Sequence record: MN850622.1
From: Escherichia phage mobillu
DNA length: 64,000 nucleotides
Direction: 5' to 3' (one strand)
Part shown: positions 10,954 to 60,950 of the stretch, piece by piece
Numbering within the stretch: the first letter of the stretch is position 1
Layout of the letters: each line of letters begins with the position of its first letter
Notes under the pieces: generated by a model
The model's input: the letters and a program-made list of their open reading frames with translations, nothing else
Databases searched by the model: none
Told to the model about the DNA's origin: nothing
Program-made: the position numbers and the translations under genes

Positions 10954-11421
10954 ATGGGTATTATTAACACTGCAATAGATTCTGTTTATGCATATAAGTT
11001 TATTCGACTAATGCAAAAACCTTTTACTGAATGGAAAGCATACGAAGCCAAAATCATCGATGAACGTGGAAGTGTTCTTAAACGCCCTTCCACTCCTGAA
11101 GAGAAAGCGGCTTATACACCTTTTCATGCTTCAGTTCGTTCAATGAAGCGAATGATGAGCACTGTTCCAGGTCTTAATGGAATGGCCTCAATGATGTCTG
11201 CCTGGAGTGCTGTAGCTTCACGCTATAACATTACGGAAGAACAACAGAAAGAAATATTTAAAGAACTCCCTTTATTTGAGGATATGGTTGCTGGTGATTC
11301 AGGCGACAGTCCTCAAGCTATTGCATCAGGAACAACTACAGGTGCAGTCGTAAATAAAGGTCCAGAACAAATTCCTTCCAAGAAAAGAAAGCGAATTAAA
11401 GTAAATATTAATAAGTTGTGA
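10954..11421 (+). CDS. hypothetical protein
   Basis: AGGAGG RBS 6 nt upstream of ATG 10954; 155 aa; Ser/Met-rich middle, basic C-terminus. Confidence 0.5.
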   Translation: MGIINTAIDSVYAYKFIRLMQKPFTEWKAYEAKIIDERGSVLKRPSTPEEKAAYTPFHASVRSMKRMMSTVPGLNGMASMMSAWSAVASRYNITEEQQKEIFKELPLFEDMVAGDSGDSPQAIASGTTTGAVVNKGPEQIPSKKRKRIKVNINKL

Positions 11422-11460
11422 TATGATGGCCTTATTAATTTAAGGCCTCTGGAGAATACT

Positions 11461-12483
11461 ATGGCTGAATGGATAGATAATGAATTTGCTTATCGTGCGT
11501 TTTCTCACCTACCTCGTTTTAGACAAATCAATAATTCAAGCACATTTAAATTAACATTTCGATGTCCAGTTTGTGGCGACTCTCAGACAGATGCAATGAA
11601 AGCTCGCGGTTGGTATTATGGCGGTACTCCTGGTAATGTACATTGCTATAACTGTCAATACCACAATACAATTTCCGGATACTTAAAGGAGTATGATGAA
11701 GAGCTTTATCGCGAATATCTAATGGAAGTTCGTAAAGAAAAAGCTAGAATGGAACCAAAGATTGAAAAGGTTCCTGAAGCTAAGCCAGAGCCAGAGAAAA
11801 AGACTATAAATTCTTTGCCGTCTTGTTCTCGTCTGGACAAGTTGCCTGAAGAGCATCCTATTGTGAAATATGTTAAGTCTCGGTGTATTCCTAAAGAATC
11901 ATGGAACAGATTATGGTTCACATTAGAATGGCCCAAATTGGTCAACAAGATTCAACCTGGTACGTATAAGAAAGAGATTCCCGAACCACGTTTAGTGATT
12001 CCTATTTTTAATAAAGATGGTAAGGCCGAGTCATTCCAAGGACGTGCACTTCGTAAAGATGCTCCTCAGAAATATATCACTATTAAAGCGTTTGAGTCTG
12101 CAACAAAAATTTATGGTGTTGAACGTGTTAAGGAAGGGGACGTCTGGGTAATGGAAGGCCCTATTGATAGTTTATTCATACCCAATGCAATCGCTATTAC
12201 AGGCGGCTCAATAGATTTAGATGTGGTACCATTTAAAGAACGTCGGGTATGGGTAATGGATAATGAACCTAGGCATCCGGATACTATAGCTCGCATGAAG
12301 CGATTAGTTGATGCAGGCGAACGTGTCATGTTCTGGGATCGAGCTCCATGGAGATCAAAGGATGTGAATGATATGGTAATGAAAGAAAATGCAACACCAC
12401 AAGAAATTTTAGAATATATGAAACAGAATATTTCAAGTGGGTTGCATGCTAAAATGAGATTATCTCGTTATTCGAAGATTTAA
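11461..12483 (+). CDS. 61: gp61 DNA primase
   Basis: 340 aa; N-terminal zinc-binding CPVCGDS...CYNC, toprim-like core; synteny. Confidence 0.9.
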   Translation: MAEWIDNEFAYRAFSHLPRFRQINNSSTFKLTFRCPVCGDSQTDAMKARGWYYGGTPGNVHCYNCQYHNTISGYLKEYDEELYREYLMEVRKEKARMEPKIEKVPEAKPEPEKKTINSLPSCSRLDKLPEEHPIVKYVKSRCIPKESWNRLWFTLEWPKLVNKIQPGTYKKEIPEPRLVIPIFNKDGKAESFQGRALRKDAPQKYITIKAFESATKIYGVERVKEGDVWVMEGPIDSLFIPNAIAITGGSIDLDVVPFKERRVWVMDNEPRHPDTIARMKRLVDAGERVMFWDRAPWRSKDVNDMVMKENATPQEILEYMKQNISSGLHAKMRLSRYSKI

Positions 12484-12677
12484 ACAAGCCCTATAATAGC
12501 AAAGGCCAAATCAACTACAGTATCCAATGGAACAGAAGGAACCATAACACCATGGGCAACTAACAATGGTGCAATCCCGAAGTTCCATGAAATAATGCCA
12601 CCTACAACTATTGCAGCGATAGCAGTTTTCTTTTTATTGCCTTTAATAGCGTTGATTAACGATGGAAGTTTAAACAT
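12480..12677 (-). CDS. small hydrophobic membrane protein encoded antisense to the early-gene direction
   Basis: 65 aa, two predicted TM segments; strong AAGGAG RBS 4 nt upstream of ATG on - strand; overlaps gene 61 stop by 4 nt. Confidence 0.45.
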   Translation of the reverse strand: MFKLPSLINAIKGNKKKTAIAAIVVGGIISWNFGIAPLLVAHGVMVPSVPLDTVVDLAFAIIGLV

Positions 12678-12765
12678 GATATCTCCTTAGTTACCTATTA
12701 TTTATTACGCTTTATAAAATTAATGTTAGAATTAACTCTCTTATACTGAATTGAAAGGAAAAATA

Positions 12766-13287
12766 ATGGCACACTTTAACGAATGTTCACAACTTATTTC
12801 TGGTGTTGATAAAGCAGAAGAAGCTTATTTTAATGCTCTGATTCACGAAGATAAAGACCCACTGCAGGTAATGCTTGATATGCAGAAATCTTTACAGGTT
12901 CGTCTGGCAAATGACAAGCCTGAACATAACAAACATCCTGATGAATTGGCCACTGCTGGCGATGTTGTTGATTGGCTGCGTAATCAGAAAGATTATATTG
13001 ATGATGAATTTCGTGAACTGCTGACTTCACTTGGTGGTATGTCCAACGGTGAAAAAGCTGCCAGCTCTGTGTGGAAGCCATGGAAAGCACAACATGCTGA
13101 ATATCGTAATCGTCGTATTGATGAACTGTCTCCTGAAGACCAGCTCGAAATTAAATTCGAAATGATTGATATTCTGCACTTCGTTCTGAACATGTTCCAA
13201 GGTCTGGGTCTTTCTGCCGAAGAAATCTTTAAACTGTATTATCTGAAGAATGCTGAAAACTTTGCTCGTCAAGACCGAGGTTATTAA
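12766..13287 (+). CDS. 56: gp56 dCTPase/dUTPase (MazG-like dCTP pyrophosphatase)
   Basis: 173 aa; MAHFNEC...DKDPLQVMLDMQ...EFRELLTSLG...ILHFVLNMF near-identical pattern to T4 gp56. Confidence 0.9.
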   Translation: MAHFNECSQLISGVDKAEEAYFNALIHEDKDPLQVMLDMQKSLQVRLANDKPEHNKHPDELATAGDVVDWLRNQKDYIDDEFRELLTSLGGMSNGEKAASSVWKPWKAQHAEYRNRRIDELSPEDQLEIKFEMIDILHFVLNMFQGLGLSAEEIFKLYYLKNAENFARQDRGY

Positions 13288-13460
13288 TGGCTCGTTTAAA
13301 TAAACGTCAGCTTAAGAAAGCTCATAAGAAACGTATTGACCAACTATTTAAAAATGATAACAGTGAGCTTATTTGTAAGCTCCTGTCTAATCAGCTTCAG
13401 CATGTTAGTCAATTATCAGACCATCTACATATGGTTGATTGGGTTGCAAATGAAACTTGA
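13287..13460 (+). CDS. hypothetical small basic protein
   Basis: 57 aa ORF (below ORF-track cut-off) starting in TAATG overlap with gene 56 stop; MARLNKRQLKKAHKKR. Confidence 0.35.
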   Translation: MARLNKRQLKKAHKKRIDQLFKNDNSELICKLLSNQLQHVSQLSDHLHMVDWVANET

Positions 13461-15096: not shown

Positions 15097-15277
15097 TATG
15101 GACCTTATGAGTATGTTTGACGAGCCTGAAGTTGAGGCTCCTAAAGTGCATCGTAGTGAACTTGTTGATGAACTAGATAGTATTATACAGCGTCATGGCT
15201 TTAGTTTACCATTAGATGTCCTGAAAGACCTCGCCTCTTATTATGATGACCCTCCACCATGGAGTCCATGGAAATGA
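15089..15277 (+). CDS. hypothetical small acidic protein
   Basis: 62 aa ORF. Confidence 0.35.
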   Translation: MNNMDLMSMFDEPEVEAPKVHRSELVDELDSIIQRHGFSLPLDVLKDLASYYDDPPPWSPWK

Positions 15278-15437
15278 AAGAGAAATTGAAAGAGAAATTC
15301 TTACTAGAAATCAAGGAAAAAGACTTTGAGACATGGTATCGAATGGTGAAAGGGTTGACATTGCTTTTTAAAGCATCCTTATTCATGTTAGAACAACCTG
15401 GCCCTGATGGACCTTTAGTAGGAAAGCTTAAAAAGTA

Positions 15438-17643: not shown

Positions 17644-17955
17644 ATGGTTTATGTATATGCAATAGTTTATCGAGATATGGAAGGATTTACCGTCCCGGTT
17701 CCACTTGATGAGCATCGTCCTGCAGTATTTTTTAGAAAGGATATTGCAGATAAAGTTTTCGATACTTTGAAAACACAGTATAAAACAGATTTAAAAATGG
17801 GAGTTCTAAGAATGGTCGAAACTCCGCGTAAGTTCTGGTTTAATAAGCTTGAAATGAAACACGTTAAACTAGATGCGGAGACGCAAAGATTGTATCAACG
17901 AATCCTGGACACAGGCCGTATTGTTAGTATTCCAATTGCAGGGACTTTACGATGA
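17644..17955 (+). CDS. hypothetical protein (dda.1 position)
   Basis: 103 aa, overlaps dda start. Confidence 0.5.
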   Translation: MVYVYAIVYRDMEGFTVPVPLDEHRPAVFFRKDIADKVFDTLKTQYKTDLKMGVLRMVETPRKFWFNKLEMKHVKLDAETQRLYQRILDTGRIVSIPIAGTLR

Positions 17956-36592: not shown

Positions 36593-37252
36593 TTATTTAG
36601 CCCTTCCTAGTATTCGGACCGCTTGGTTGCATATAGCCGCTAAGCGATCTTCCTCAAGTATATTATTCCCCTTATACCAATACATCGTCACAGTTCCAGC
36701 ATAGATGTTATCCAAATTAAAGTATGGACAACTATACATATAAGAAAGTTCGGCAGTCTTAGATTTTGTAGGCAAAAATGCAAATTCTGATTTAGATGAG
36801 AAATGACGGCCACTTAAATGAATTATATATTCATTGGCCGTTTTATCCACCGGGAATCCGCCAAGGGACTTTTCAGAAATTGTGCTAGGTAGTTTGCCTT
36901 CATAAGCTATAAGGTCGACAAAATAATTTAAGTTTTTAGGTCTGAAAGAATACACAGCACTAAAATCTGCACCAGATGAGATATGAACTATTTGCAGTTG
37001 TTCTAGAGCCGCAGATTCAAAACGTAAAGCTCGTTCTTTTTGGATTATTTCAGTATAAGTATCATACTTAGCTCTTACATAATAATCCAGCAAAATACTT
37101 CCTTTGTACCATATTAGTGCCATTAGGAACAAAAGAATAATTACCGCTACTCGGGACATTAAAACCTTTCCAGTAGCGTTATCTTTGAAAATACGATCTA
37201 GCAACCCAAATAGAATATCACTAAGCGAAAATGACACTTTTGGTGTTGCCAT
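36593..37252 (-). CDS. t: holin T
   Basis: 219 aa; SFSLSDILFGLLDRIFKDNATGKV...MYSCPYFNLDNIYAG matches T4 holin; AAGGAGG RBS and late promoter upstream. Confidence 0.9.
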   Translation of the reverse strand: MATPKVSFSLSDILFGLLDRIFKDNATGKVLMSRVAVIILLFLMALIWYKGSILLDYYVRAKYDTYTEIIQKERALRFESAALEQLQIVHISSGADFSAVYSFRPKNLNYFVDLIAYEGKLPSTISEKSLGGFPVDKTANEYIIHLSGRHFSSKSEFAFLPTKSKTAELSYMYSCPYFNLDNIYAGTVTMYWYKGNNILEEDRLAAICNQAVRILGRAK

Positions 37253-59466: not shown

Positions 59467-60553
<1,087 letters not shown>

Positions 60554-60745
60554 ATGAAACGATTATATGAAGTGATTGAGGCCATCGAACAGCATAAAGA
60601 ATATTTGTTTGTAGCCTGGCCTTTAGTAAATGGACAGTTCGGTATTGATGTGCTGGACTATGAGCATGAAGAACGTTTGGACGGTGGTATATTTGATAAC
60701 GTCGACCAGGCAATTGAATGGTTAAATGAAAACTATGTACGATAA
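60554..60745 (+). CDS. hypothetical protein
   Basis: 63 aa. Confidence 0.45.
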   Translation: MKRLYEVIEAIEQHKEYLFVAWPLVNGQFGIDVLDYEHEERLDGGIFDNVDQAIEWLNENYVR

Positions 60746-60950
60746 ACATCATGAAATCGAAGATGAAGCATACAAAATGCTTCGTAAACTAGTGGGACTT
60801 AATATGAGTCCTACATTAATCAACAAACTCGCAGGAATTCGTAATGATCTGAATACTCGTTACAAAGGTGAATATCATGTAGAGTTTGTTCCTGTAGGTG
60901 AACCAACCGAGCGATTTGTTGTTCGAGTTAAAGTAAATACTGTGCACTGA
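60726..60950 (+). CDS. hypothetical protein
   Basis: 74 aa; start uncertain. Confidence 0.4.
   Translation: MKTMYDKHHEIEDEAYKMLRKLVGLNMSPTLINKLAGIRNDLNTRYKGEYHVEFVPVGEPTERFVVRVKVNTVH

Follow-up and report, generated by a model that had tools for sequence, protein, structure and literature searches.

In the 64,000-nucleotide (nt) stretch of Escherichia phage mobillu that was analysed (sequence record MN850622.1, hereafter the window), a 65-residue open reading frame (ORF) is read on the minus strand between genes 61 and 56, converging on the former and diverging from the latter (Table 1). The window is Mosigvirus, RB69-like: the 2 kb around the ORF are 99.7% identical to Escherichia phage FL31 and 96–99% identical to about 150 further records, among them O157 typing phage 3 and Shigella phage Shf125875, which are Mosigvirus (RB69-like T-even phages). 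The ORF is a member of the family RB69ORF029w / RB32ORF030w / phrog_2024, which shows the same adjacency to gene 61 without difference and has no assigned function. Based on its conservation, its upstream signals, and its modelled structure, the ORF is proposed to be a vertically inherited T-even accessory gene for a late, single-pass inner-membrane microprotein that would bind a partner at the periplasmic face, a reading to which a probability of roughly 0.7 is given. The span of the ORF, its AAGGAG ribosome-binding site, and the 4-nt overlap of its stop codon with that of gene 61, as described in the initial annotation of this DNA, proved exact on re-reading the letters. It had also been called the only convincing minus-strand gene within the plus-strand block, and a greedy ORF map of positions 225–36592 bears this out, adding just one other minus-strand ORF (15201–15386, 61 residues), which is not credible and is devoid of a ribosome-binding site, promoter motif, and hydrophobicity. 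A 72-residue minus-strand ORF elsewhere in the greedy map (60534–60752) is likewise devoid of a ribosome-binding site, promoter box, and hydrophobicity, and both of these look spurious on such features.

Table 1. Features of the gene 61–gene 56 interval and its flanks (positions in the window).
Feature	Position	Strand	Details
Predicted membrane microprotein coding sequence, 65 residues, MFKLPSLINAIKGNKKKTAIAAIVVGGIISWNFGIAPLLVAHGVMVPSVPLDTVVDLAFAIIGLV	12480..12677	-	RB69ORF029w / phrog_2024 family; ATG start (12675-12677), TAA stop
Shine-Dalgarno AAGGAG	12683..12688	-	5-nt spacer (ATATC) to ATG
Late-promoter-like box AATAAATA	12699..12706	-	21 nt upstream of ATG; T4 consensus TATAAATA with A at -13
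Predicted transmembrane helix, codons 15-41	12555..12635	-	AlphaFold2, block pLDDT 75-90; includes W31-N32 (codons at 12582-12587) and P37
Predicted short hydrophobic C-terminal helix, codons 51-64	12486..12527	-	AlphaFold2; weakly amphipathic; starts at acidic D52
TTAA common to two convergent TAA stops	12480..12483		gene 61 on plus strand, ORF on minus strand
Gene 61 DNA primase flank	11461..12483	+	convergent with ORF; phrog_47, E 8.9e-102; DNA primase in matching records
Probable MotA-dependent middle promoter of gene 56	12705..12732	+	MotA box TTACGCTTTA (12705-12714), 12-bp spacer, -10 TAGAAT (12727-12732)
Gene 56 dCTPase/dUTPase flank	12766..13287	+	divergent from ORF; phrog_173, E 1.2e-45; Pfam dUTPase_2

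The ORF product matched phrog_2024 ("unknown function") from end to end (residues 1–65 on profile positions 1–65 of 65, E 2.6e-27), and the orthologs of six other lineages match the same profile with E values of 1e-24 to 5e-31. A tblastn search with the ORF returned 692 phage records. Identity is 93–100% within Mosigvirus, about 55% for the Tequatrovirus copies, that of T4 among them, and about 45% for Gaprivervirus CJ20 and for Yersinia phage P8; a second tblastn search with a Gaprivervirus-type query extended the family to Moonvirus, Marfavirus, Jiaodavirus, Dhakavirus, and Gelderlandvirus, all of which match phrog_2024. The ratio of nonsynonymous to synonymous substitution rates (dN/dS) was 0.09–0.27 in seven comparisons by the Nei–Gojobori method, and substitutions were concentrated at the third codon position: the counts for positions 1, 2, and 3 were 12/4/38 for Marfa against IME08 and 6/0/11 for comparisons inside Mosigvirus. 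As these substitution patterns indicate, the ORF is under purifying selection, and because it is both conserved and selected it can be taken as a genuine gene, a spurious ORF being ruled out by the dN/dS values. The initial annotation had named lack of conservation in related genomes as grounds for discarding the gene; the 692 tblastn records show that it is conserved there.

The genomic position of the ORF is also conserved. Its convergent placement on gene 61 is kept in at least 10 T-even lineages, namely Mosigvirus, Tequatrovirus (T4, RB51), Gaprivervirus, Yersinia phage P8, Dhakavirus, Moonvirus, Marfavirus, Jiaodavirus, Gelderlandvirus, and Kanagawavirus. In carriers the ORF meets gene 61 tail to tail at the 3' end of the latter, and the 4-nt stop overlap is the usual arrangement; it is identical in T4, RB51, IME08 (from own-stretch coordinates, ORF end 1965 versus gene 61 boundary 1962), Merlin, Marfa, UTK0003, and CIP9. 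In CJ20, 118 bp lie between the ORF and gene 61, in KP1079 the two are also apart, and in Yersinia phage P8 a homing endonuclease gene is inserted between them. The other flank is variable: the neighbour there is gene 56 in the window and RB51 and dam in T4. IME08 and KP1079 have homing endonucleases at this place, Merlin and Marfa a second, MazG-like NTP-pyrophosphohydrolase, and CIP9 an unnamed hypothetical protein. The ORF–gene 56 junction (in P8, the gene 61 side of the ORF) is an insertion hot spot, and the small ORF remains attached to gene 61. Several product names in the P8 record (PP693301) look wrong for size or context, including "DNA packaging ATPase" on a 33-residue ORF, "molybdenum ABC transporter" on three small ORFs of the mrh/srh region, and "major capsid domain-containing protein" on a 61.1-like ORF.

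Outside the subfamily, the T4-like phages that were compared (Tulanevirus, Hadassahvirus, Bragavirus, Krischvirus, Pseudotevenvirus RB16, and one Vibrio phage of the schizo-T-even type) have no such ORF downstream of gene 61, and it is also missing from Tegunavirus phiR1-RT. A toxicity screen of phiR1-RT was considered as a source of information on the ORF and set aside because this phage is without the gene; fHy-Eco03 is not a T4-like phage. A HMMER search against 1.84 billion cluster representatives gave only six matches, all members or fragments of the ORF family, and a word-indexed search of 5.8 billion clusters with a nine-genus profile gave 116 matches (47–74 residues, mostly 63–69, essentially all unnamed or "hypothetical"), all on T4-like phage contigs. 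Bacterial or plasmid homologs were thus absent from these 5.8 billion clusters and 1.84 billion representatives, the carriers being T4-like phage contigs of about 160–175 kb, and an IMG/VR scan with the ORF returned close relatives only. The G+C content of the ORF is 0.379 against a window mean of 0.377. Because synteny is fixed and base composition is native, vertical inheritance is favoured over recent acquisition, which is rejected; judging from this distribution, the ORF is an old, vertically inherited T-even gene (Tevenvirinae plus Marfavirus). Truncated or frameshifted Tequatrovirus orthologs in some Logan/ENA assemblies may be natural loss-of-function variants or assembly errors.

The region upstream of the ORF contains an 8-bp late-type box of the gp55 type without a −35 element. 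The T4 late promoter consists of the 8-bp TATAAATA box alone, which is perfect at 32 of 50 listed T4 sites; A for T at −13, the form seen in the window, is the commonest natural variant (9 of 50), and the TA→AT form occurs at 1 of 50 (PMC2988020). A box of the NATAAATA or ATTAAATA type is located 12–22 nt before the ATG in 10 of 10 lineages amid diverged non-coding surroundings, and (A)GGAGG occupies the equivalent Shine–Dalgarno position in all 10 lineages compared. The box is the canonical TATAAATA in the IME08 and Marfa orthologs, AATAAATA in RB51, GATAAATA in T4 (17709–17716, plus strand of NC_000866), and CATAAATA in P8, CJ20, and KP1079; Merlin and UTK0003 carry the TA→AT form, ATTAAATA. 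Across the window, ATAAATA occurs about half as often as expected (14 copies, counting both strands, versus 27.2 ± 4.4), which fits selection against stray late promoters, and it stands within 45 nt upstream of the start in just 5 of 92 window ORFs: the 65-residue ORF, soc, holin t, and two ORFs of the minus-strand late block at 36.6–46.7 kb, which size and order, the only bases for judging them, suggest to be tail-fibre genes.

A comparable arrangement is found in the T4 late genes that lie in the early region (soc and, according to the literature, e and I-TevI), which likewise combine a gp55-type box and a strong ribosome-binding site inside an early/middle block. In the window, soc lies 1 kb from the ORF with TATAAATA 31 nt before its ATG, whereas the box of the ORF is the A(−13) variant. 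In addition, soc and e are located on the early-transcribed strand and are silenced by a hairpin in the early read-through RNA; the ORF is on the opposite strand, so that early transcription cannot express it. No sigma-70-type promoter or terminator near the ORF was predicted in the promoter and terminator scan. In CJ20, however, the spacer between the ORF and gene 61 contains a strong hairpin with a U run (−35.3 kcal/mol, z −4.87; own-stretch 2750–2800), perfect over 16 bp and bordered by T/A runs on both sides, which resembles a terminator serving the convergent pair in both directions; owing to this hairpin, promoter, ribosome-binding site, ORF, and terminator would there form a self-contained unit. 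Judged by these signals, the ORF is most likely expressed late in infection. The gp55/gp33/gp45-RNA polymerase would transcribe it as a short minus-strand late unit, in antisense orientation to the transcripts that run from 61 to 56 in the early/middle phase.

The predicted protein begins with a basic N-terminal segment of 17 residues (K3, K12, K15–17), and residues 18–46 are hydrophobic, with a Kyte–Doolittle 19-residue maximum of 1.93. Two AlphaFold2 runs, built on 12 and 31 aligned sequences, gave predicted local distance difference test (pLDDT) values of 79.4 and 79.7 and in both cases placed helices at residues ~3–11, 15–41, and 51–62/64, with a Pro-rich loop at 42–50. The initial annotation had described two hydrophobic helices, which is roughly right; the long helix at 15–41 stood in the transmembrane prediction, whereas the second comprises only 12–14 residues (mean hydrophobicity 0.65, hydrophobic moment 0.32) and cannot span the bilayer alone. 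Because it is too short, this C-terminal helix is probably embedded in the outer leaflet or rests against it. The last 18 residues are hydrophobic, with D52 and D56 as the sole charges (net −2). The modelling supports the assignment of the ORF product as a small single-pass membrane protein. The "late-expressed membrane peptide" of the initial annotation thus gains support on both counts, from the late box in every lineage and from hydropathy and AlphaFold2.

In a nine-genus alignment, W31, N32, P37, G43, P47, and G63 do not vary, and residue 52 is acidic (D or E) throughout; W31, N32, and P37 are also invariant in 31 family members. The motif W-N-x4-P-x5-G-x3-P-x4-(D/E) is present in the window ORF as W31, N32, P37, G43, P47, and D52. 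Conservation peaks in the turn and in that third of the helix which is predicted to lie towards the periplasm, and the cytoplasmic N-terminus varies freely, a pattern that would be expected of a small protein docking on another membrane protein. A Foldseek search of BFVD gave family members only, and one of the PDB gave nothing.

T4 appears to tolerate the loss of this gene. T4_583L is a genome-reduced but viable and stable T4 clone with a burst of 109 versus 120 for the wild type (PMC9825161). Its ortholog (record MZ375356, own-stretch 592–725) has lost 2 nt, so that the reading frame shifts after codon 22, and a further 4 nt between the Shine–Dalgarno sequence and the ATG; the adjacent gene 61 is intact. 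Because of this frameshift and the loss in phiR1-RT, the ORF is probably a non-essential accessory gene, dispensable in the laboratory, and since T4 tolerates its loss, its role would not be an essential step.

The 88-bp gap between the ORF and gene 56 has a G+C content of 0.23 and accommodates signals on both strands. The sequence TTACGCTTTA matches the MotA-box consensus at 9 of 10 positions, and its spacing agrees with the middle-promoter rule, in which (a/t)(a/t)(a/t)TGCTTtA is placed 12 ± 1 bp from TAtaaT (PMC2988021). The MotA box and the late box of the ORF, on opposite strands, overlap by 2 bp (12705–12706), and the two promoters seem to form a compact, back-to-back divergent middle/late pair. 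In RB51, the spacer of the corresponding middle promoter encloses the late box.

Based on these features, a possible mode of action may be outlined for the ORF product. The protein would be inserted in the inner membrane by one transmembrane helix with its basic N-terminus in the cytoplasm, in line with the positive-inside rule, leaving a periplasmic tail of about 24 residues composed of the Pro-rich turn and the short hydrophobic helix. A partner membrane protein would then be bound at the periplasmic face through the invariant W-N-x4-P-x5-G-x3-P-x4-(D/E) stretch. MgrB, AcrZ, and MgtS are bacterial single-pass small membrane regulators, and the ORF product resembles them in size, in its one helix, and in conservation in or just beyond that helix. 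This likeness, a purely functional analogy without homology, suggests binding to a larger membrane protein, and the ORF protein would act like other small single-pass membrane regulators. As for the process involved, our best guess, and a tentative one, is the tuning of late envelope events, that is, lysis timing, lysis inhibition, or membrane integrity.

Several points weigh against this proposal. The tie to lysis or the envelope comes only from the small, late, membrane-bound character of the protein, whose topology is a prediction; late expression is read from sequence signals, and the box in the window is the A(−13) variant, the in vivo strength of variant late promoters being not established. 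No homology to any characterised protein was found in Pfam, NCBIfam, PADLOC, or Foldseek searches of BFVD and the PDB. Moreover, the loss in T4_583L sits among many other deletions, and the record could hold sequence errors, although gene 61 is intact. Mosig's old "gene 69" membrane protein was considered as the identity of the ORF and rejected; gene 69 became segF, which lies on the other side of gene 56.

The rival that survives best, though still an unlikely one, is a late superinfection-exclusion or anti-defence factor, which would block the DNA entry of other phages or neutralise a membrane-acting abortive-infection effector. Such functions are typical of small, dispensable, lineage-restricted phage membrane proteins, and the ORF is apparently dispensable on K-12 in rich medium, is confined to enterobacterial T-even phages, and has its conserved part modelled at the periplasmic leaflet. 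Short T-even-specific proteins of the inner membrane or periplasm, namely RI (the antiholin), Imm, and Sp, adjust lysis or superinfection, and the ORF product is comparable with them. However, no PADLOC match was obtained at E ≤ 1, nor a match to any other characterised family; phrog_2024 was the only significant PHROG match of the ORF, the RI and Imm families not having been compared directly. The T-even exclusion proteins Imm and Sp, the latter encoded 2.4 kb upstream in the window, are early functions, whereas the ORF is without an early promoter, is antisense to early transcription, and has a predicted late promoter; its predicted periplasmic part comprises only about 24 residues.

It is more improbable still that the protein is a strict holin, pinholin, or antiholin that forms or gates the lethal lesion releasing the endolysin. 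In size and membrane insertion it is like the holins (T4 T, PF11031; class II holins; pinholins): it is small, probably late, and membrane-embedded, with at least one transmembrane domain (the predicted helix 15–41). The OE5505 (UniRef entry) and KP1079 (GenBank record) orthologs are labelled "holin" or "putative holin", but these labels come without supporting evidence, and the ORF matches none of the Pfam, PHROG, and NCBIfam holin families, showing no sequence or profile similarity to holins. The Tequatrovirus copies start with MVQKLM, loosely like a dual-start motif, but the second Met is not conserved beyond that genus. Instead of a charged holin-type tail, the C-terminus is hydrophobic with a net charge of −2, and no endolysin or spanin gene is adjacent. 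The window also encodes the canonical holin T at 36593–37252 (PF11031, E 7e-91), preceded by a perfect TATAAATA, and t is required for lysis, whereas T4_583L, in which the ORF is disrupted, still lyses with a near-normal burst. The holin/antiholin or exclusion role raised in the initial annotation stays a guess, with no holin, NCBIfam, or PADLOC match, a hydrophobic C-terminus, and holin T located elsewhere.

An acquired toxin-like element had also been proposed in the initial annotation; in the style of a type I toxin, it would be a hydrophobic killer peptide held under an overlapping antisense RNA. Like Hok, TisB, and Ldr, the 65-residue ORF product is a small hydrophobic single-helix peptide with an antisense-overlapped mRNA, since any transcript reading through from 61 to 56 would be complementary to its whole coding sequence, and it shares its 3' end with gene 61. 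Unlike those toxins, the family is phage-only and syntenic, with its position fixed across at least 10 lineages, native base composition, and no homologs beyond T4-like phages in the cluster searches described above. No Rfam antisense RNA was found at E ≤ 1 over 11400–13400, and the promoter scan revealed no promoter-like site for a short antisense RNA. The strong, exposed Shine–Dalgarno sequence and the ORF's own putative late promoter do not suggest repression, and in CJ20 the terminator parts the ORF from gene 61, so that the overlap is not needed. The toxin explanation is largely refuted by distribution and has very little left in its favour. Scarcely credible, too, is a late antisense RNA as the main product, lowering gene 61 expression or blocking read-through into gene 56 with the ORF incidental: in most lineages the convergent genes are too close together for an intervening terminator, so that late transcripts must enter gene 61, and T4 transcribes both strands at several sites at different times (PMC2988020), but the protein is under purifying selection with W, N, and P invariant while silent sites are saturated, its strong ribosome-binding site is conserved, and the ORF is apart from gene 61 in CJ20 (by the terminator) and KP1079, so that an antisense side-effect may coexist with coding and cannot be the main function.

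The proposal of a late, single-pass accessory microprotein can be set against the annotation status of the family, which is already catalogued and uncharacterised and is hence of modest interest. It appears in hundreds of records as the "hypothetical protein" RB69ORF029w / RB32ORF030w / phrog_2024; in RB51 it is annotated as RB32ORF030w, "similar to RB69ORF029w", and identical proteins occur in many Mosigvirus records. In contrast to these, the T4 ortholog (NC_000866, 17738–17938, plus strand, 66 residues, with an AAGGAGG ribosome-binding site) lies between dam and gene 61, in a 309-bp gap to which neither RefSeq nor AF158101 assigns a gene. In the protein collection searched, the exact T4 protein was found only from raw-read assemblies and is without an NCBI or UniProt accession. 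The IME08 ortholog (own-stretch 1765–1965) is also unannotated in RefSeq NC_014260. Literature searches gave no paper naming RB69ORF029w, and those on ribosome profiling of T4, on unannotated ORFs, and on late promoters in antisense orientation yielded nothing about the locus.

The T4 and IME08 reference records therefore omit a conserved, selected gene with late-expression signals, which calls for an annotation correction. With 65 residues and three invariant positions, and being probably late-expressed and dispensable, the microprotein offers a well-defined target for work on small membrane proteins of the T-even late programme. T4 itself, the best-studied phage, would carry an unannotated conserved late gene, and, doubtful as this extension is, its product could supply a missing part of the T-even machinery for lysis timing, lysis inhibition, or envelope protection, acting via the W-N...P motif on a candidate partner such as holin T, RI, a spanin, or a host inner-membrane protein. 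If it modulates lysis inhibition or membrane integrity, it would be a new component of a classic, still incompletely understood system.

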